39,014 bases of DNA from Corallococcus sp. AB030 (GTDB lineage: Bacteria; Myxococcota; Myxococcia; Myxococcales; Myxococcaceae), in contig NZ_RAWQ01000078.1 in NCBI RefSeq assembly GCF_003668965.1, forward strand, positions 1 to 39,014, in the 5' to 3' direction. The notes under the pieces were generated by a model. That model was given only the letters and a program-made list of their open reading frames with translations, searched no databases and was not told the origin of the DNA. Position numbers and translations under genes: made by a program. Of the stretch, positions 458 through 37,301 are shown in pieces. The stretch's first letter is position 1; each line of letters opens with the position of its first letter.

Positions 458-1309
458 ATGGCGTCCCCCTCCATTCCCGCCCCCGTCGTCCTTTTGGGGG
501 GCGGCAAGATCGCCGAAGCCCTCATCCTGGGACTGTTGCGGTCCGGCCACGTACGTCCTTCGGACCTTCGCGTCACGGTGCGCCGGCCCGAGCGCGGAGA
601 GGAATTGCGCTCCCGGCACGGCGTGCACGTCCTCGTGGACAACGCGCAGGCGGTGCGGGGCGCGGCCGTAGTCGTGCTGGCGGTGCGACAGGCGCAGCTG
701 CGGGACCTGATGGCGGTCATCTCGCCTGCCTTGGAACCTGGGCAGACCGTGGTGTCGCTCTCCGCGGACGTACGACTCGCGCAGTTGGAAGCGGCGTTGC
801 CCTCCAGCGTCTCTGTCATCCGCGCCCTGCCCCATACGCCCGTGCGCGTGGGAGCAGGCGTGACGCCCCTGTCGGCCGGAACTCGGACGACGGAGGCCGC
901 GAGACAGGCCACCGAGTCCGTCTTCGCGGCGACGGGACGGCCCATGTGGATGACCGAGGAAGCGCTCACGGTCTGCACGGGCGTGTGCGGCACGGGCCCC
1001 GCGTATGTCTTCCGCTTCGTGGAGGCCCTGGCCCTGGCCGCGATGGCGCACGGAATGGACGCGGCGGAGGCGGCGGCACTCGCGAAGGAAACGCTCATTG
1101 GCGCGGCGAAGCTGTTGGCCGAACCCGGCGCCACCACCCCTCGCCTCATCACGGAGATAGCGACCCCGGGAGGCATCACCGAGGCGGGCCTGATGGCGAT
1201 GGACTCCCACGGCCTCCCTCGCGTCGTGGGCGAAGCGGTCTCCGTCGCCATCCAGCGCACCCGGGAGCGCGCGGACGCGAACGCCGCGGCCTACAGCGCG
1301 CCGAAGTGA
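458..1309 (+). CDS. proC: Pyrroline-5-carboxylate reductase
   Basis: N-terminal Rossmann motif VVLLGGGKIAEALILGL and a conserved P5CR C-terminal domain (CTGVCGTGPAY, ITEIATPGGITEAG). The 283-aa length matches the family. Confidence 0.9.
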   Translation: MASPSIPAPVVLLGGGKIAEALILGLLRSGHVRPSDLRVTVRRPERGEELRSRHGVHVLVDNAQAVRGAAVVVLAVRQAQLRDLMAVISPALEPGQTVVSLSADVRLAQLEAALPSSVSVIRALPHTPVRVGAGVTPLSAGTRTTEAARQATESVFAATGRPMWMTEEALTVCTGVCGTGPAYVFRFVEALALAAMAHGMDAAEAAALAKETLIGAAKLLAEPGATTPRLITEIATPGGITEAGLMAMDSHGLPRVVGEAVSVAIQRTRERADANAAAYSAPK

Positions 1310-4000: not shown

Positions 4001-6685
4001 TCACCGGGCGCGGAGGAACGCCTTGACGCTCGGGGACTGGAGCTTCTGGGACTCGATGCACAGCCGGATGGACTCCAGGGCCCGGGTGAGCGCGCGCGGT
4101 CCGCCTTCAATCTTGTCCACGCGGGGCGTCAGGAACGTCTCCACCTGCGCCAGGTGGATGTCATCGCAGAGGCTCCCCGTCTGGCCAATCAGCCGACCCA
4201 GCTCATCCGAACGCAGCCGCTGGGTCAGCGCATCGAAGTGCGTCTGATAGAAGTTCCACGCCAGCGACTGCGACTCCGGCAACATCAACGCCATCCGGAG
4301 GATGCTCTGCGAGTCCCGCACATCGAAGTCCGGCGACACCACGAGCCCCAGCGCCCGCCACAACAGCTCCGGGTTCCGGAAGTAGCCCAGCGACATCAGC
4401 AGCCGGGAACGCTCGGTGCGGTCCTGTTCCTTCCTCGCCGCTTCCAGCAGCGCGTCGAACAGCGCCGCATCGCCGTGCGTCGCTGCTCGGGGCAGCGCGG
4501 CACTGAACGCCTCCGGGTCCACCGACTTCCGGTCCGCCAGCCATGCGCGCACCAGGGGCAGCGCCTCCTTCACCAGCCGAGGGTCATCGCCCAGACCACC
4601 GGCCAGCCGGAGGAACAGGGAGCGTGAATCCTTCACGGAGTCGTCCTCGCCCGGCTTCGGCACCCAGCCCATGGCCCGCGCACGCGCCGAGTAGAGCGAG
4701 GCCACCCACGCGCGGAAGCGCTGGCGCTCCTCGGGCGTGAGCTGCTCCAGACGCACGAGTTCCAGCAGCGAGGCACCGCTCTGCACCACGAGCCGGTTCG
4801 TCGATTTCGCGGAAGCAGGCACCGACTTCAGCGCCTCCCCCAGCGGCAGGTCGCCCCGGCTCACCGCCGCATCCACATCCGCCCAGAGCGCCATCTGCTC
4901 CGCGGGAGTGAAGGCGGCGGCCGGAGTCGCGAGCAGCTTCGTCAACTGCTCGCGGGTGTAACCGCTGCGGTAGTAACCCGTGCCGCCCGCGTTGAGCAGC
5001 ACCCACGCCGGGCACTGCTTCGTGGGCAACGCGACCTCCGCGGACGGCCCCTGCAACATCGAGCACACCCGCGACGACTGCGTGCCCGTGCCCACGCGAA
5101 GACACACGGGCACCTGCCATTCCTGCCGCGAGTCCGCCTTGGAGCCCACGGGCAGGTACCGCTCCTGCGACAGCTTCACGGACGGAGCACCGCCCGCCGG
5201 GCACGACAGCTGCGCGGTGATCCGAGGCGCCCCGCTCCGCTCGATGAACCCGCCGAAGGATTGCGCCACCTCCGGCCCCGCCGCCTGGGACAGGTCCGCG
5301 AGGAAGTCCTCCATCGTCGCGACCTTCCACTCGTGCTTGCGGACATAGCCCCGGAGGAAGTCGCGGAAGCGCTCGGGGCCCATCCAGGCCTCGTACATGG
5401 CGATGACGGACGAGCCCTTGTCATACGTCGTCCCGTTGTCGAACGAGCCCACGATGTCGTCATTGCTCTCCACCGGCTTGCGAACGGGCAGCGCCGACGC
5501 CAGCTCATCCGACGCCAGGGCGGAGCGGGTCGCGGACATGGCGCGCTCCTGCTGGTAGTCCCAGGACGGCTCCAGCCGGTCCACGGTCTGCCGGTCCAAC
5601 CACGCGGTGAAGGACTCGTTCAGCCAGATGTCGTTCCACCAGGAGCAGGTGACGACGTCCCCGAACCAGTAGTGGCCCAGCTCATGGTTGGCGATGACCG
5701 CGTACGACTTGCGGCGGGCCAGCGTCTCCTCACCGGGAGGAATGAGCGTGAGCGGCTGCCCGAGTGCGACGATGCCCGGGTGCTCCATGGTGCCCCAGTA
5801 CCGGGGCACGACCGCCACATCGAGCTTCTCGTACGGATAGGGCTGGTCGAAGAAGTCCTCCAGTCCCTTCACGATGCGAGGCGTGATGCTCGCGGCGTAG
5901 CGCGTCTCCGCGCCCCGGCCCTTGGGGACGATGAAGCGCAGCGGCACGTTCGTGCGTCCCACGGTGCCGGCCTCGACGATGTCGAACGGCCCCACCATGA
6001 AGGCCACGAGGTAGCTGGGCATCGGCTTGCTCTCCGCGAAGGTGACGCGCTCCAGTCCGTCCGCCAGCGGCTCGCGCGACACGACGGGATGGTTGGCCAG
6101 CGCCACGTGTCCGGCCTTCACGGTGAAGCGCAGACGCCACGGCACCTTGAAGGTCGGCTCGTCGAAGCACGGGAAGGCGCGGCGCGCGTCGATGGGTTCG
6201 AAGAACGTGTAGAGGTAGGGCTCACCGCCCTCCTCCACCCCGTAGATGCCCTGGCTGCGCTCGCGGTCCACCTTGCCGGTGAAGTCGAGCAGGAGCTGGG
6301 CCTTGCCCACCGGCAGCTCCTCCGGCAGCAGCAATCCCAGACGTCCTTCGGGCGCGGTGACAGGCTTCGCATCGAACGTGCGGCCCGCCACGGTGACACG
6401 AGCACGCGTCACTTCCACGTCCTGCGCATGCAGCCACACCTGGCGCACGGGCTCGCGGACCTCCACGTCGATGGTGACGCTGCCCGGGTACCTGTCCTCC
6501 TAGGGCACGAGCTTCAGATCCAGCGCGTAGTGCACGGGCCGAACGGTGTCCGGCAGCCGCAGCGCGGGGGGCAGGGCCTCCGGCCACGAAACGGAGGGCG
6601 GCGCGGATGCAGTCGGCGCGGCCTCCGGCGCGTGGGCGCAGCGGACGGTCAACACCACCAGGGCGAGGAGTGGGAGCAGTCGCAT
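4001..6685 (-). pseudogene. pepN: Aminopeptidase N (M1 family zinc metallopeptidase) interrupted by a single in-frame TAG at 6500..6502. The N-terminal 61 codons (6503..6685) carry the signal peptide, and the open body runs 4001..6466
   Basis: The body carries the gluzincin motif HELGHYWFGD...WLNESFTAW and the upstream GAMEN-like region. The short upstream ORF in the same frame encodes MRLLPLLALVVLTVRCAHA plus the conserved M1 N-terminal motif VRPVHYALDLKLVP. The single stop sits between LKLVP and EDRYPGSVTIDVEV, the conserved P..F.G.V.I motif. Confidence 0.7.
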
Positions 6686-6846
6686 GGGGCGCAGCGTAGA
6701 CCATGCGCGGGTCGCGCACCGCGCCTACGTCTCGGCTCGCACCCACAGCATTCTTGAAATGTCTCCAATCCGTGAAGCAGTGATTTCAACCCCGCGAGCC
6801 GCTACGGTCCTGATCCCCCCGCATCACCCCCTAGCCGAGGATAAAC

Positions 6847-7161
6847 ATGTTTCGTCGCAGCAGCGTTCTTCCCTCCCTCTTCGTGTCCCTGCTTTTCGTC
6901 GTGGGCTTCGCGTCGTCGGCCAGCGCTGACACCTACCAGACCTATGTGACGCCCACGGCCAATGGCTATCAGATTGGCACGTACCTCCCCAACCAGCCCA
7001 CCGGGAACTTCAGCAGCGCCGCCGACACCGCCCGCCGCTTCTGTCAGGACCAGGGCCACAGCGGCGCGCAAAGCTTCACCACCGCCATCCGTGGCTCCGC
7101 CTTCTCGTTCATCGTGGGTACGAATGGCGTGGGCAACTGGCTGAGCTATCCCCTCATTTGA
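6847..7161 (+). CDS. Secreted repeat-module protein, 5' portion: signal peptide plus module 1 (NGYQIGTYLPNQPTGNFSSAADTARRFCQDQGH...GTNGVGNW). Truncated by the insertion at 7141
   Basis: Signal peptide MFRRSSVLPSLFVSLLFVVGFASSASA. SD GAGGA lies 6 nt before the ATG. The terminal codons LSYPLI* come from the inserted element. Confidence 0.65.
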   Translation: MFRRSSVLPSLFVSLLFVVGFASSASADTYQTYVTPTANGYQIGTYLPNQPTGNFSSAADTARRFCQDQGHSGAQSFTTAIRGSAFSFIVGTNGVGNWLSYPLI

Positions 7162-7247
7162 AGATTCCCCTCGGAGAATGCATGAGCAGCCGAGCGAGCA
7201 AGCTCAGAGGGGAAATCGAAAATGAGGGGATGCTTCAGGGCAACTGG
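7132..7247. mobile_element. MITE-like 98-bp insertion (7141..7238) with ~19-bp imperfect terminal inverted repeats (CTGAGCTATCCCCTCATTT / AAATGAGGGGATGCTTCAG), flanked by 9-bp direct repeats GGCAACTGG (7132..7140 and 7239..7247)
   Basis: Direct reading. The element has lower GC than its flanks. Deleting 7141..7247 (107 nt) joins 6847..7140 in frame to 7248..7577, giving one signal-peptide plus two-module ORF. Confidence 0.6.
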
Positions 7248-7577
7248 GGCACCACCGGCAATTCCAACGTGACCATGCTGGAGACCGTCACCTGCTTCAC
7301 TTCCAACTCGGGCGTCACCTACACGACTCCCGCAGTCAATGGCTATCAGATTGGCACGTACCTCCCCAACCAGCCCACCGGGAACTTCAGCAGCGCCGCC
7401 GATACCGCCCGCCGCTTCTGCCAGGACCAGGGCCACACCGGCGCGAGCAGCTTCACCACCGCCATCCGTGGCTCCGCCTACTCATTCGTCGTGGGCACGA
7501 ACGGCGTGGGCAACTGGGGCACCACCGGCAATTCCAATGTGACCATGCTCGAAACGGTCACCTGCATCACGCAGTAA
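7182..7577 (+). CDS. Secreted repeat-module protein, 3' portion (remaining tail of module 1 plus complete module 2). Lacks a signal peptide as annotated and is probably the distal part of one gene split by the insertion
   Basis: Module 2 (7327..7517) is ~93% identical in DNA to module 1 (6950..7140). The ATG at 7182 is preceded by GGAGA, but the N-terminus lies inside the inserted element. Confidence 0.55.
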   Translation: MSSRASKLRGEIENEGMLQGNWGTTGNSNVTMLETVTCFTSNSGVTYTTPAVNGYQIGTYLPNQPTGNFSSAADTARRFCQDQGHTGASSFTTAIRGSAYSFVVGTNGVGNWGTTGNSNVTMLETVTCITQ

Positions 7578-7589
7578 CCGACAGTCCGG

Positions 7590-7617
7590 GGACCGGGGCT
7601 CCTCGCGGCCCCGGTCC
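7590..7617 (+). terminator. GC-rich hairpin GGACCGGGGC-N8-GCCCCGGTCC downstream of the repeat-module gene
   Basis: 10-bp perfect stem, 13 nt after the stop at 7577. Confidence 0.5.
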
Positions 7618-7669
7618 ACCGGGTGTCTTCCAGATGCACGCGGCGGTGGAGTGGGTCAGGATGCGGCCC

Positions 7670-8491
7670 ATGTCCAACCTCCAAGGCAAGACCCTCTTCA
7701 TCACCGGCGCCAGCCGCGGCATCGGCAAGGCCATCGCGCTGCGCGCGGCCCGCGACGGCGCCAACATCGTCATCGCCGCGAAAACCACGGACCCGCACCC
7801 CAAGCTGCCCGGCACCATCTACACGGCGGCGAAGGAGATTGAAGAGGCCGGCGGCAAGGCCCTCCCCTGCGTGGTGGACATCCGCGACGAGGCGCAGATC
7901 CACGCCGCCGTCGCCAAGGCCGTGGAGACCTTCGGCGGCATCGACATCCTGGTGAACAACGCCAGCGCCATCAGCCTCACCGGCACGCTGGAGACGCCGC
8001 TCAAGCGCTTCGACCTGATGCACGGCATCAACACGCGCGGCACCTTCGCGTGCTCGCAGGCGTGCATCCCGTACCTCAAGAAGTCCTCCAACCCGCACAT
8101 CCTCAACAACTCGCCGCCGCTCAACATGGAGCCGCGCTGGTTCGGCCCCCACGTGGCCTACACCATCGCGAAGTACGGCATGAGCCTGTGCGCGCTGGGC
8201 ATGGCGGAGGAGCTCAAGGACGACGGCATCGCCGTCAACACGCTGTGGCCCCGCACCGTCATCGCCACCGCCGCCGTGCAGAACCTGCTGGGCGGCGACG
8301 ACACCATCAAGGGCAGCCGCACGCCGGAGATCATGGCCGACGCCGCGTACACCATCCTCACCAAGCCCAGCCGCTCCTTCACCGGCAACTTCTGCATCGA
8401 CGATGAAGTGCTGCGCGCCGCCGGCGTCACCAACCTGGACAAGTACCAGTCCGTCCCCGGCGCGGAGCTGCTGCCCGACTTCTTCCTCTAG
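7670..8491 (+). CDS. SDR-family NAD(P)-dependent oxidoreductase (HSDL2-like short-chain dehydrogenase)
   Basis: TGASRGIGKAIA glycine-rich cofactor motif, NNAS, catalytic YxxxK (YTIAKYG). Start taken at MSNLQGKTLFITG; a TTG further upstream at 7634 is possible. Confidence 0.8.
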   Translation: MSNLQGKTLFITGASRGIGKAIALRAARDGANIVIAAKTTDPHPKLPGTIYTAAKEIEEAGGKALPCVVDIRDEAQIHAAVAKAVETFGGIDILVNNASAISLTGTLETPLKRFDLMHGINTRGTFACSQACIPYLKKSSNPHILNNSPPLNMEPRWFGPHVAYTIAKYGMSLCALGMAEELKDDGIAVNTLWPRTVIATAAVQNLLGGDDTIKGSRTPEIMADAAYTILTKPSRSFTGNFCIDDEVLRAAGVTNLDKYQSVPGAELLPDFFL

Positions 8492-31765: not shown

Positions 31766-32122
31766 CTACTCCGCGAAGCGCACGAGGTTGAGCAGCTGCC
31801 CCATGTCCAGGGGCTTCTGCAGGGTGATGGCGACGCCCTTGCGCAGGCCCCGGTCGGAGATGTTGGCGTCCGTGCTGGCGGTCATCATCAGGACGGAGAT
31901 GCGCTGGAAGCGGGGATCCGCCTTCAGCATCTCCGTGAAGTGGATGCCGTCCAGGTGGGGCATCAGGTAGTCGGTGATGACCAGCCCCACGGGGTGACGC
32001 TCCATGATGTCCAGGGCCTGGAGCGCGTCCGACGCCGAGAACACGGTGTAGCCATGCATCTCCAGGTAGCGAGAGAGCATGGTGCACAGCTCGTAATCGT
32101 CGTCGACGACCAGGATGTTCAC
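31766..32122 (-). CDS. Single-domain CheY-like response regulator
   Basis: MNILVVDDDYELCTMLSRYLE...VGLVITDYLMPHLDGIHF...LQKP. 118 aa. Confidence 0.8.
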   Translation of the reverse strand: MNILVVDDDYELCTMLSRYLEMHGYTVFSASDALQALDIMERHPVGLVITDYLMPHLDGIHFTEMLKADPRFQRISVLMMTASTDANISDRGLRKGVAITLQKPLDMGQLLNLVRFAE

Positions 32123-32210
32123 GGGGTTCGGGCCGAAACGGGGCGCTGGAAGGTAACAGCGACGCCGGTCGTTGACAACGCGAAGGACGGCTTCTTAGCT
32201 GCCGGCCCGA

Positions 32211-33284
32211 ATGGCGAAGCGCATGGCGAAGCAAGGGGAGGCGCGGGACATGGACGCGCGGCTGGAGGGAGTCGCGGACGCCTTCGAGGCGAGGGACTTC
32301 GAGGCCGCGCTCACCAGCGCCGACGCCCTGCTCCGGGACGTTCCGGACTCACCAGAAGCCCTGCACTACCGGGCCGCCGCGCTGGTGGAGGTGGGACGCC
32401 TGGAGGACGCGGGCAAGGCCTATGGCGCCGCCCTCAAGATGGCCCCGGAAGACCTGGAGATCCTCTTCGGCGCGGCGGAATTCCTCGTGTGCCGCACCGG
32501 CGAGGACCGCGAGGCGGTGGAGGAAGGGCTGGAGTGGTGCGGCCGCGGGCGGAAGCTGGCGCAGCGGGCCGATGACGTGGAACTCGTCTACGAGTTCCTC
32601 CTCCTGGAGGGCATGGGCCTCAACCAGCTGGGGGAATGTGAGTCCGCGCTGAAAATCCTGGACCAGGCGCTGACGCACATGCCGCGCTCGACGGACGCGC
32701 AGCTGGAGCGGGGCATCGCGCTGTTCGAGTTGTGCCGCTTCGCGCCCGCGCAGGAGGCCTTCGAGCGGGTGTTGAAGGACGCGCCGGACGAGGCCTGGGC
32801 GCACCACTACCTGGGGCTGGTCGCGGAGCGGCGCCAGGATGCGAAGGAGGCGAAGAAGCGCTTCTCCCGGGCGCAGGCGCTGGCCCCGGAGGAGCTGCCG
32901 CCGCCGGTGGCACTGGAGGAGGCGGCGTTCGACCGCGCGGTGGAGGACGCGATGCGCGCCCTGCCCTCCCAGGTGAAGCAGTACATGGACAACGTGACGC
33001 TGGCGGTGGAGGACCTGCCGTCGGATGAGGACCTGCTGGGTCAGCAGCCGCCACTGTCACCGTGCATCCTGGGGGTGTTCCGGGGCACGCCCGTGGGCGA
33101 GCGCAGCGTGATGGACGCGGCGGATCACTTCCCGCCCTCCATCGTGCTGTACCAGAAGAACCTGGAGCGCTTCGCGCGCACCCGCGAGGAGCTCATCGAA
33201 CAGATTGGCATCACGGTGATGCACGAAGTCGGTCACTTGATGGGTCTGGATGAAGACGACCTGTGGGAGCGGGGGCTGGACTAG
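32211..33284 (+). CDS. TPR-repeat protein with a C-terminal zincin-like minimal metallopeptidase domain (Zincin_1/DUF1025-like)
   Basis: TPR-like helices in the N-terminal half. C-terminal ...IGITVMHEVGHLMGLDEDDLWERGLD (HExxH-type). Confidence 0.65.
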   Translation: MAKRMAKQGEARDMDARLEGVADAFEARDFEAALTSADALLRDVPDSPEALHYRAAALVEVGRLEDAGKAYGAALKMAPEDLEILFGAAEFLVCRTGEDREAVEEGLEWCGRGRKLAQRADDVELVYEFLLLEGMGLNQLGECESALKILDQALTHMPRSTDAQLERGIALFELCRFAPAQEAFERVLKDAPDEAWAHHYLGLVAERRQDAKEAKKRFSRAQALAPEELPPPVALEEAAFDRAVEDAMRALPSQVKQYMDNVTLAVEDLPSDEDLLGQQPPLSPCILGVFRGTPVGERSVMDAADHFPPSIVLYQKNLERFARTREELIEQIGITVMHEVGHLMGLDEDDLWERGLD

Positions 33285-33612: not shown

Positions 33613-36012
33613 TCAGGCGGCGCGCGAGCCCTTGTCCTCGAAGTAGGCGCGGCGGGCGCGGGCGCAGGTGGGGCACTGCCACTGCACCAGGGTGAGGTGG
33701 CGGTCGCCCAGGACGACGGCCTCGTGGCGGAGCGACTCCCGTGGGGCCTCGCTGGTGGCTCCGCAGGCGCAGCGCAGCCGGCCCAGCGTGGAGAGCAGCT
33801 CCTGAGGGCTGGTGATGGGGATGGCGGACCCGGCGCTGTCGCCCCGGTGGTCCGCGTCGAACTTGCGTGCGAAGGCGCGGCGCCGGCCCCAGGCGCGGCC
33901 CTTTCGCCAGAGCGCCACCGGGCCGCCCTGCGCGATGACGAACCACAGCACGAGGCACGTCGCGATGACGCCCAGGAGGATGGCACCCGCCTCGCCGGAC
34001 GGAACGGACGAGGCCTGGTGGCGGGCGGCCCGGCTCCTGAGTTGGATGGCGTAGCCGCGCTGGGCCTCGGTGGCGCGCACGGCCTTCACGTACTCGGCGA
34101 TGCGCTCGGGCGGGACCGAGTCCGCGGTGCTGCGGTAGCTGTAGTCGAGCAGCAGCGTCTTGCCTTCGGCGCGGGTGTCGGCCACGAAGCGGAAGGCCGG
34201 ACCGTCCACGACCTCGTACTCCGTTTTGACAGGGGGCAGCTCGCCGGCCTTCAGCGTGATGCGGTGGCGGGCGAAGACGGGGTGCTCCACCTCCAGCGGG
34301 AAGGCGCGGTGGGAGTAGTTCGGCACGGCGAGGTGCTGGCGGAGGCCATGCGCGCGGAACTCCCGGCGACCGTCCGAGGTCCAGAAGTCCTCGATGCGGT
34401 AGTGCTCTTGCGTGACGAGCACGTTCGTCACGGTGTCGTCGTCCACCGACATGGGCTTCGCGATGGAGATGTCCGCGTCCGTCTTCGCGTAGTAGTTGAA
34501 GTAGAGGCGGGACACCTCGGACAGGGACGTGCCCGCGAGCGCGCGGCGCATGGAGTTGGCGTCCGCCCCCGTGCGCGTGGTGACGACGTCGAGTGTCGCG
34601 GCCCCGTCGCGGCCCATCGCGACGTAGGTCTCGTCCACGAAGAGGGAGGGCTCCGTCAGCGTGGGCGTGGGGATGACGGAGAGCGCCGTGGTGGCGGGGG
34701 CGACAAGGAGGGCCCGGCCGTAGGAGGGCGGTTCGTAGCTTTCCAGCCCGCCGCGCTCCAGCGTCGCCGTGGGGTCCACCCACAGCTCGCGGCCGGCCAC
34801 GGTGGCGTGGACGATGACGTGGTTGAACGCGGTGGCGGTGGGACGCAAGCCGTCCAGCAGCTGCGTGAGGTCCGTGCTCACGAGCGCCGGCTGCGCGTCG
34901 ATGCCCAGCCCCTTGAGGAGCGATACCAAGAGGAGCGACTTGTCCTTGCAGTCGCCGAAGCGGCGCTGGAGGACCTCGTCGGGCGGATGGGGCTGGTGGG
35001 AGTTGGGGCCCATCTCGATGCCCAGGTAGCGCACCTCGTCCTGGACGAAGCGAAGCGCGGCGAGGAAGCGCGCCTCAGGGGTCGGCTCCTTCGACAGCCG
35101 GCGGACCTCCTGTTCCAGCGACTTCGAGCGGGCGGGCACCTGGAACAGCGTGGAGGCCCAGCGCGCGACGTCGTTCCAGTCCTTGTATTCGCTGAACTGG
35201 ATCCACGGGTAGACGGGCTGCCAGCCGGGGACGTTGTCCTCGTGGCGGACCGCGGGCACGTGGCGGCGCTCCAGGATGATTTCACGCTCGCCGTTCAGCA
35301 TCGACTCCGAGCGCGACAGGCCCGGCGCGGCGAAGTCCCGGATGAAGAGCGTGCGCCCCCGCCCTTCCGGCCACAGCAGCCGGTAGGCGAAGTGGACCAC
35401 GGGATAGGAGTGGCCCACGCCGACGACGTCGGAGAAGCGTCCGCCAAAGACGGGGTTGGCGCCTTCGAAGGAGTACGCGACCTCCACCGTGTCGCCCACG
35501 CGCACGTCGCGGAGGAAGGGCACCACGGAGAGGTTGCCGTTGTAGAGCCGGTTCTGGAGCTCGGTCTCCTGCTGGATGACCCGGGCCTCGGCAGGCTGGA
35601 AGACGTCCTCGCGGCGGCCGTCGCGGATGCGCCAGATGCCGTGGACGGTGAGCTTCTGGTACGTCGGATCGAAGCGGAACTGGATGTCCGTGACGCGGTC
35701 GATGCCCCGCGGAGAGAGGACCTTCTGGGCCGAGTGCAGGTAGTGCACGCGCGATGGGCCGGACACGCGCACCTGTTCCTCGATCAGCAGCCGGGAGACG
35801 CTGGTCTCCTCCTCGCCCTCGGGAGTCGGGCCGGGGTCTGGAGGAATGGGAAGCGGCTTCACCCACGCGGCGGGAGGCCCGACGCGGAACGGCCTGGCGT
35901 TCGTCGCCGCCGGTGCTGCCCCGGCGCTCAAGGACAGACACAGACACAGCAGCAGGACGGGCACCGGAAAGAAGCCCGGTGCCAGGAGGACGGAACGGAA
36001 GGTTCGGCGCAT
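33613..36012 (-). CDS. Transglutaminase-like cysteine protease family protein (DUF3857-like N-domain plus transglutaminase core) with a C-terminal TM helix and cytoplasmic Cys4 zinc-ribbon tail
   Basis: Signal peptide MRRTFRSVLLAPGFFPVPVLLLCLCLSLSAGAAPA. Core RRFGDCKDKSLLLVSLLKGLGIDAQPALVST...NHVIVHA (Cys-His-Asp). TM AGAILLGVIATCLVLWFVIAQ. CxC...CPTC at the C-terminus. Confidence 0.7.
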   Translation of the reverse strand: MRRTFRSVLLAPGFFPVPVLLLCLCLSLSAGAAPAATNARPFRVGPPAAWVKPLPIPPDPGPTPEGEEETSVSRLLIEEQVRVSGPSRVHYLHSAQKVLSPRGIDRVTDIQFRFDPTYQKLTVHGIWRIRDGRREDVFQPAEARVIQQETELQNRLYNGNLSVVPFLRDVRVGDTVEVAYSFEGANPVFGGRFSDVVGVGHSYPVVHFAYRLLWPEGRGRTLFIRDFAAPGLSRSESMLNGEREIILERRHVPAVRHEDNVPGWQPVYPWIQFSEYKDWNDVARWASTLFQVPARSKSLEQEVRRLSKEPTPEARFLAALRFVQDEVRYLGIEMGPNSHQPHPPDEVLQRRFGDCKDKSLLLVSLLKGLGIDAQPALVSTDLTQLLDGLRPTATAFNHVIVHATVAGRELWVDPTATLERGGLESYEPPSYGRALLVAPATTALSVIPTPTLTEPSLFVDETYVAMGRDGAATLDVVTTRTGADANSMRRALAGTSLSEVSRLYFNYYAKTDADISIAKPMSVDDDTVTNVLVTQEHYRIEDFWTSDGRREFRAHGLRQHLAVPNYSHRAFPLEVEHPVFARHRITLKAGELPPVKTEYEVVDGPAFRFVADTRAEGKTLLLDYSYRSTADSVPPERIAEYVKAVRATEAQRGYAIQLRSRAARHQASSVPSGEAGAILLGVIATCLVLWFVIAQGGPVALWRKGRAWGRRRAFARKFDADHRGDSAGSAIPITSPQELLSTLGRLRCACGATSEAPRESLRHEAVVLGDRHLTLVQWQCPTCARARRAYFEDKGSRAA

Positions 36013-37202: not shown

Positions 37203-37301
37203 GGTAGGGCCTCCGGACCTGGTGGCCGGCCCGGTCTTCAAAACCGGTGAGGGGCTGCGAGAGCAGTCCCTGGCGAGTTCGATTCCCGTGCCCTACCGCC
37301 A
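37203..37301 (+). tRNA. selC: tRNA-Sec (selenocysteine), anticodon UCA, CCA encoded
   Basis: 99 nt. 8-bp acceptor stem GGTAGGGC/GCCCTACC. Discriminator G then CCA. Anticodon arm CCGGT-CTTCAAA-ACCGG (U33, UCA, A37). Long variable arm with an 8-bp stem (GGGGCTGC-GAGA-GCAGTCCC). T-arm GCGAG-TTCGATT-CCCGT. This is the 8/5 architecture typical of bacterial tRNA-Sec. Confidence 0.8.

Follow-up and report, generated by a model that had tools for sequence, protein, structure and literature searches.

Why is a gene for an exported aminopeptidase, otherwise apparently whole, cut by one stop codon near its start? The question is raised by a contig of Corallococcus sp. AB030, all 39,014 bp of which were analysed and are referred to below as the window. 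On its minus strand lies a metallo-aminopeptidase gene of the M1 (aminopeptidase N) family, in which codon 62 is an in-frame TAG. We think that this stop is a very recent nonsense mutation, private to this strain, and that the allele is null; we put the probability of this explanation at about 0.7. A sequence-only reading of the locus had placed a recent nonsense mutation ahead of a sequencing error and had ranked readthrough last. This order still holds, since the stop is private to AB030 and orthologues have a sense codon at the position.

The frame opened by ATG 6685..6683 begins MRLLPLLALVVLTVRCAHAPEAAPTASAPPSVSWPEALPPALRLPDTVRPVHYALDLKLVP and runs through 61 sense codons (MRLLPLLALVVLTVRCAH...ALDLKLVP) to TAG 6502..6500. 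Translation 3' of the TAG continues in the same frame as EDRYPGSVTIDVEV... / EDRYPGSVTIDVEVREPVRQVWLHAQD... for 832 codons, up to TGA 4003..4001, and the junction in the joined protein is LKLVP-x-EDRYPGSVTIDVEVR, where x is codon 62. A mechanical list of open reading frames (ORFs) gives two pieces, 6500..6685 (61 aa) and 4001..6466 (821 aa, from a GTG). The coordinates and sequence that had been quoted, with both pieces in one frame around TAG 6500..6502, are correct. The '821-codon body' is right if it is counted from GTG 6466, but the segment that follows the TAG has 832 codons.

The 61-codon piece and the catalytic body are collinear with orthologues of 894 to 910 residues, at up to 99.8% identity, and on the strength of these alignments their adjacency is not due to chance. 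Pfam profiles were run on the joined 894-residue protein, with X at the stop and gathering scores as cut-offs (Table 1). Because the Peptidase_M1_N profile spans the TAG, the stop falls within the N-domain of an M1 aminopeptidase that is itself complete. A six-frame scan of GC content at the third codon position (GC3) and of composition by codon position singled out TAG 6500..6502 as the only stop of the window that has real coding signal both before and after it. That an aminopeptidase N gene is cut by a single in-frame TAG is thus upheld, by three Pfam domains and by homology to solved M1 enzymes.

Codon 62 was then compared among relatives. Scanning a single genome for each species gave 29 loci, of which 26 (Myxococcaceae and related) align across the stop column; the codon is a sense codon in 26 of 26, and a stop in none. 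C. coralloides KYC2213 and C. interemptor have TCG (Ser) there, and another five Corallococcus species ACG (Thr); in Myxococcaceae and Archangiaceae further afield, the codon is GCG, GAG, GCC, CAG or TCC. The 90% protein cluster has 44 members, and among the 13 full-length ones (890-895 aa) that were read, residue 62 is Ser in ten, Lys in two and Thr in one, again with no stop. Over the orthologues as a whole the column varies (S, T, K, A, E or Q, and G in one more distant homologue). The stop had been described as falling inside a conserved N-terminal motif: the block LRLPDTVRPVHYALDLKLVP-x-E is indeed strongly conserved, but column x itself varies.

Judged by its best protein matches, which carry the name C. 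exiguus, AB030 is a member of that species; it groups with AB018, AB032C and others (PMC6306037). Codon 62 is polymorphic in C. exiguus, being TCG in most strains, AAG (Lys) in two assemblies and TAG in AB030. TCG, AAG, GAG and CAG are one base away from TAG, while ACG, GCG, GCC and TCC are two bases away. The comparison with orthologues that had been proposed as a way to the ancestral codon therefore points to a sense codon, which in the closest relatives is TCG (Ser). As in other nonsense pseudogenes, this codon is a single change from the stop, and both parts of the gene are collinear with a full-length orthologue.

A protein search returned 1,548 homologues at E <= 1e-50. Among the best 120, from which lengths were taken, nearly all have 845-950 aa; the only two that fall far short of this (588 and 655 aa) carry the label 'partial'. 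Cluster members have 890-895 aa, save AB030's own 673-aa fragment. No orthologue among the cluster members or the best 120 homologues starts naturally at or near the downstream GTG, a possibility that had been raised against an interruption. By these alignments the M1 gene is full length in all other Corallococcus and related Myxococcaceae examined; unlike the other Corallococcus copies, with Ser, Lys or Thr at position 62, the AB030 copy alone has a stop. In other respects it resembles the M1 peptidases of this group (WP_434300325.1 of C. exiguus, WP_014397703.1 of C. coralloides DSM 2259), with the same 894-codon length, domains and motifs, and its protein is 96.3% identical to that of C. 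coralloides DSM 2259. The related M. xanthus DK 1622 protein is named 'peptidase, M1 (aminopeptidase N) family'.

The closest relative is P0129, from the complete C. exiguus genome CP183924.1 (locus L030), a full-length protein of 894 aa with 892 of 894 residues identical (99.8%). Of 2,685 nt, 12 distinguish the two genes: ten synonymous differences, P39/S39 and TAG/TCG (window 6501). All other aligned orthologues have P39, as AB030 does, and S39 occurs only in CP183924.1, which indicates that this change is derived in the CP183924.1 strain. Twelve cluster members have exactly 894 aa, and every residue of the AB030 protein except the stop occurs in at least one of them. The 832 codons downstream of the TAG are free of private amino-acid changes, and the catalytic motifs are intact. 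This absence of private changes argues for a very recent event.

In the proposed scenario, an ancestral TCG (Ser) at codon 62 would have become TAG through one transversion at window 6501, C to A as read on the gene strand and G to T on the plus strand. Translation from ATG 6685 would then yield a product of 61 residues, which reaches from the signal peptide through a linker to the first beta-strand of the N-domain; no useful amount of the catalytic body would be made, leaving a null allele and a nascent pseudogene. The stop, its one-step relation to TCG and its absence from all relatives examined are seen directly, as is the intact remainder of the gene; the presence of the change in the organism itself and the lack of a functional protein are what we infer. 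The M1 gene is also seen to be monocistronic, its upstream neighbour being divergent and its downstream neighbour convergent, and the stop should therefore have no polar effects.

An erroneous consensus base at codon 62 is possible, and a number of observations weigh on that side. In that case the organism would still carry TCG, and the draft Illumina/SPAdes assembly would have wrongly called an A at the second position of the codon. Only one draft genome has the stop, no sign of relaxed constraint is seen in the remainder of the gene, and a total lack of downstream decay is equally expected from a base-call error. A second assembly confirming the TAG was not found: exact look-ups of the 821-aa ORF (as in the DNA reference, and with Met1), of the products starting at codons 80, 92 and 126, and of the 61-aa fragment gave only RefSeq AB030 entries, hence no independent assembly with either truncated product. 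Moreover, C-to-A/G-to-T is the class of change made by oxidative damage in library preparation, although such artefacts are present at a low read fraction and rarely reach the consensus. The data and the site speak for a real base. AB030 belongs to a set of 23 sequenced Corallococcus strains; its reads (Illumina HiSeq 2500, 2x250) were assembled with SPAdes 3.7 at a mean coverage of 55x, contigs below 7x having been removed (PMC6306037). The TAG lies outside homopolymers and repeats. The alignment to CP183924.1, which covers 8.7 kb, contains one indel only, a sequence resembling a miniature inverted-repeat transposable element (MITE), and the other 11 differences in the gene (ten synonymous, and one nonsynonymous that is derived in the other strain) fit purifying selection; detectable error in the contig is therefore very low. 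The 10:1 bias towards synonymous changes marks these other differences as natural polymorphism rather than random error. Real disruptive events do occur at the locus, as the MITE-like insertion in the adjacent AB030 gene cannot be a base-call error. Taken together, the odds for a real mutation over an error are about 3.5:1, and we regard the error as unlikely.

The stop could also have arisen by recombination, as TAG is an exact T|AG chimera of TCG and AAG. Both parental codons exist in C. exiguus, TCG in CP183924.1 (L030 3184..3186) and AAG in AB032C (locus L031) and GCA_013155175.1 (locus L032), in each case at 1184..1186. The T of one would have been joined to the AG of the other by a crossover between the first and second codon positions, or by a very short tract of conversion there. 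On either side of the codon, however, the AB030 gene agrees with the TCG-allele strain: the two nearest informative sites carry no AAG-allele polymorphism, the differences number 12 from that strain compared to 76 from the AAG allele, and codon 65, three codons downstream, is the AGG of L030, where L031 has ACG. As flanking sites match the TCG allele, a conversion tract could be at most about 10 nt long. With flanking single-nucleotide polymorphisms of the TCG type on both sides, a single C-to-A change is the more parsimonious account, and recombination within the codon appears very improbable. Nor is functional recoding at all likely, that is, a TAG read through by a near-cognate, suppressor or pyrrolysine-like tRNA, or followed by reinitiation, such that a useful enzyme is kept and the stop serves as an attenuator of expression. 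Some leakage is conceivable, which would tell against a null allele: the codon just before the stop encodes Pro, E. coli is slow to terminate on a chain that ends in Pro, and an inserted residue would probably be accepted in a column that tolerates S, T, K, A, E, Q and, in one distant homologue, G. The TAG also completes an AGGAGG string. Yet the stop is conserved in no relative examined, and TAG is a normal terminator in the window, where it ends three Pfam-supported genes (Table 1) and about 7 of the 21 genes predicted from GC3. The sole tRNA of the window is tRNA-SeC, which decodes UGA and not UAG. Shuffled versions of the 131 nt around the stop average -54.1 kcal/mol in minimum free energy, and the native sequence has -50.5 kcal/mol (z = +0.93), hence no excess of structure; an Rfam E-value scan of 6200..7600 gave no relevant element, only sub-threshold noise of the miRNA-hairpin kind on the MITE-like insert, and a promoter and terminator scan of 6300..7000 gave no matches. 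The low rank given earlier to readthrough is thus justified by a stop that is not conserved, by the ordinary use of TAG and by the lack of RNA structure. Nothing suggests programmed readthrough; trace readthrough is possible. One variant would make the TAG allele a tolerated, leaky intermediate, in which slow termination at Pro-UAG-G and near-cognate readthrough keep some exported enzyme while codon 62 moves between TCG and AAG by way of the stop; we give it hardly any credence.

Reinitiation had been placed at GTG 6466, with the remark that the product would be without its export signal. The latter is correct, but initiation is not favoured there, as this GTG sits 29 nt past the AGGAGG string and has no Shine-Dalgarno (SD) motif of its own. 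All in-frame ATG, GTG and TTG codons between codons 63 and 260 were scanned; the only ones with SD-like motifs are codons 80, 92, 118, 126, 222 and 242, the better contexts being those of codons 80, 126 and 222. A product begun at the GTG would already be without its signal peptide and the N-domain's first strand, which falls within the stretch alignable to solved M1 structures, and the better starts would cost it progressively more of that domain. Reinitiation was therefore rejected as a route to a functional enzyme.

A strain-private nonsense mutation, by comparison, is like the ordinary pseudogenes ('internal stop' coding sequences) of bacterial draft genomes: a single-base change, in one strain, with the rest intact and the annotation split. 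The only curiosity with respect to these is that the AB030 stop is one step from both the TCG and the AAG alleles of the species. The TAG is ordinary and not a special decoding signal, and the enzyme family is well known, not novel. What we describe is, in a single strain of a predatory myxobacterium, an allele of one exported peptidase that has probably lost its function, and it implies no new biology. Predatory gene sets of Corallococcus have been reported to be plastic, and the AB030 allele fits this description (PMC6306037).

Table 1. Positions in the window of the interrupted M1 gene, its parts, and other features named in the text
Feature	Position	Strand	Remarks
Whole interrupted M1-family (ERAP1-like, three Pfam domains) metallo-aminopeptidase gene	4001..6685	-	894 codons including the internal TAG
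Internal TAG, codon 62	6500..6502	-	changed base is window 6501 (A on gene strand, T on plus strand)
N-terminal fragment, 61 codons + TAG	6500..6685	-	RefSeq 'hypothetical protein' WP_368667381.1
Probable lipoprotein-type signal peptide, MRLLPLLALVVLTVR then Cys16	6638..6685	-	predicted from sequence
Conserved first-strand block of N-domain, LRLPDTVRPVHYALDLKLVP	6503..6562	-	directly upstream of stop; from ortholog alignment; aligns to 8sw0 N-terminus
Peptidase_M1_N (PF17900), residues 50-226	6008..6538	-	TAG inside; 114.8 bits, cut-off 25.8
First in-frame GTG after TAG, codon 74	6464..6466	-	no SD within 4-12 nt upstream; start of mechanical 821-aa ORF
ATG, codon 222	6020..6022	-	GGAG 9 nt upstream; start of 673-aa WP_368667383.1
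Peptidase_M1 catalytic (PF01433), residues 263-475	5261..5899	-	173 bits, cut-off 27.7
Exopeptidase motif GTMEH, residues 298-302	5780..5794	-	intact; G, M, E kept, last residue H not N
Zinc site HELGH-X18-E, HELGHYWFGDVVTCSWWNDIWLNE, residues 334-357	5615..5686	-	intact; identical in close orthologues
ERAP1_C (PF11838), residues 561-874	4064..5005	-	intact; 199.5 bits, cut-off 38.2
Terminal TGA of interrupted gene	4001..4003	-	frame unbroken from TAG onward
TAG-ended SDR gene	7634..8491		Pfam-supported
TAG-ended response regulator gene	31766..32194		Pfam-supported
TAG-ended TPR-zincin gene	32211..33284		Pfam-supported
tRNA-SeC, anticodon TCA	37203..37301	+

The joined protein has the HEXXH-X18-E site, the GXMEN-type motif and the three-domain architecture of the M1 family, and its residues 35-833 match human puromycin-sensitive aminopeptidase (PSA) 8sw0 with E = 1.5e-92. 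It is like the ERAP1-like, oxytocinase-type M1 enzymes (PSA 8sw0, glutamyl aminopeptidase 4kx7, ERAP1 6t6r, IRAP 4z7i) in its N-terminal strand, the one carrying the stop, its HEXXH-X18-E site and its ERAP1_C domain. Unlike these four-domain proteins, it is bacterial, has a probable lipoprotein-type signal, and carries GTMEH and not GAMEN. It is through the Glu of this exopeptidase motif that the N-terminus of a substrate is bound. The GTMEH variant is common to 15 of 15 orthologues examined, from Corallococcus through Longimicrobium and Polyangium, and in place of the canonical GAMEN it may be the mark of a distinct M1 subfamily.

The N-terminus reads MR, LLPLLALVVLTV, then R-C16, and this Cys is invariant in the 15 aligned orthologues (15/15). 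Distant orthologues have a canonical lipobox, LAAC or LVAC, while Myxococcaceae have a non-canonical R or H at -1. All orthologues share an N-terminal hydrophobic segment, a Cys at about position 16-20 and a block LRLP..V.P..Y.L.L. The export signal recognised earlier is therefore present, and can be refined to one that is most likely of the lipoprotein type, with Cys16 kept in all orthologues. Going by these features, the M1 enzyme is probably exported and lipid-anchored. It is not named among the cargo of M. xanthus outer-membrane vesicles in the portions of the literature consulted.

RefSeq shows the locus as two coding sequences and not as one pseudogene. WP_368667381.1, 'hypothetical protein [Corallococcus sp. 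AB030]', matches the 61-aa fragment exactly; WP_368667383.1, an 'ERAP1-like C-terminal domain-containing protein', corresponds to the C-terminal 673 residues (4001..6022, minus strand, from ATG 6022) and is without almost the whole N-domain. The two fragments can pollute protein databases and pan-genome counts.

Other stops in the window were considered and rejected as internal stops. A DUF3857/transglutaminase-like gene truly ends at TGA 33613..33615, after which nothing recognisable follows, and TGA 32349..32351, together with other TAG candidates, proved to be antisense shadows by codon-position GC (low GC1 or a reversed pattern). No convincing in-frame TGA of a selenoprotein candidate was seen in the window.

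The neighbourhood of the M1 gene is shared with CP183924.1 on both sides, and with AB032C on the downstream side only. Upstream of the gene (window 6686..7600), AB030 and CP183924.1 have a gene for a small two-repeat protein, followed by those for the SDR and a LysR regulator. In AB030, ORFs 6847..7161 (plus strand, 104 aa) and 7158..7577 (plus strand, 139 aa) are the halves of this one gene, which encodes 207 aa in CP183924.1 (L030 2216..2839). The 207-aa protein has an N-terminal hydrophobic segment and then two tandem repeats of about 80 residues (...NGYQIGTYLPNQPTGNFSSAADTARRFCQDQGH...VGTNGVGNWGTTGNSNVTMLETVTC), and no Pfam family matches it. It is split by a 97-nt insert at 7141..7237 (plus strand) that is absent from CP183924.1; as the insert divides this gene and the TAG cuts the M1 gene, two adjacent, divergently transcribed genes of AB030 are both disrupted.

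The insert has a GC content of 53%, compared to about 67% locally, and is flanked by a direct repeat of 9-10 bp, (G)GGCAACTGG, resembling a target-site duplication (7131..7140 and 7238..7247). Its termini are imperfect inverted repeats, CTGAGCTATCCCCTCATTT and its complement, matching at 16 of 19 positions, and on folding the whole insert forms a single long hairpin (-51 kcal/mol). In these sequence traits it looks like a MITE; further copies occur neither in the window nor in the 32 fetched loci. In AB032C, the region upstream of the M1 gene (L031 1..1000) is occupied instead by a 758-aa PKD/Kelch beta-propeller gene and about 650 bp with no called gene.

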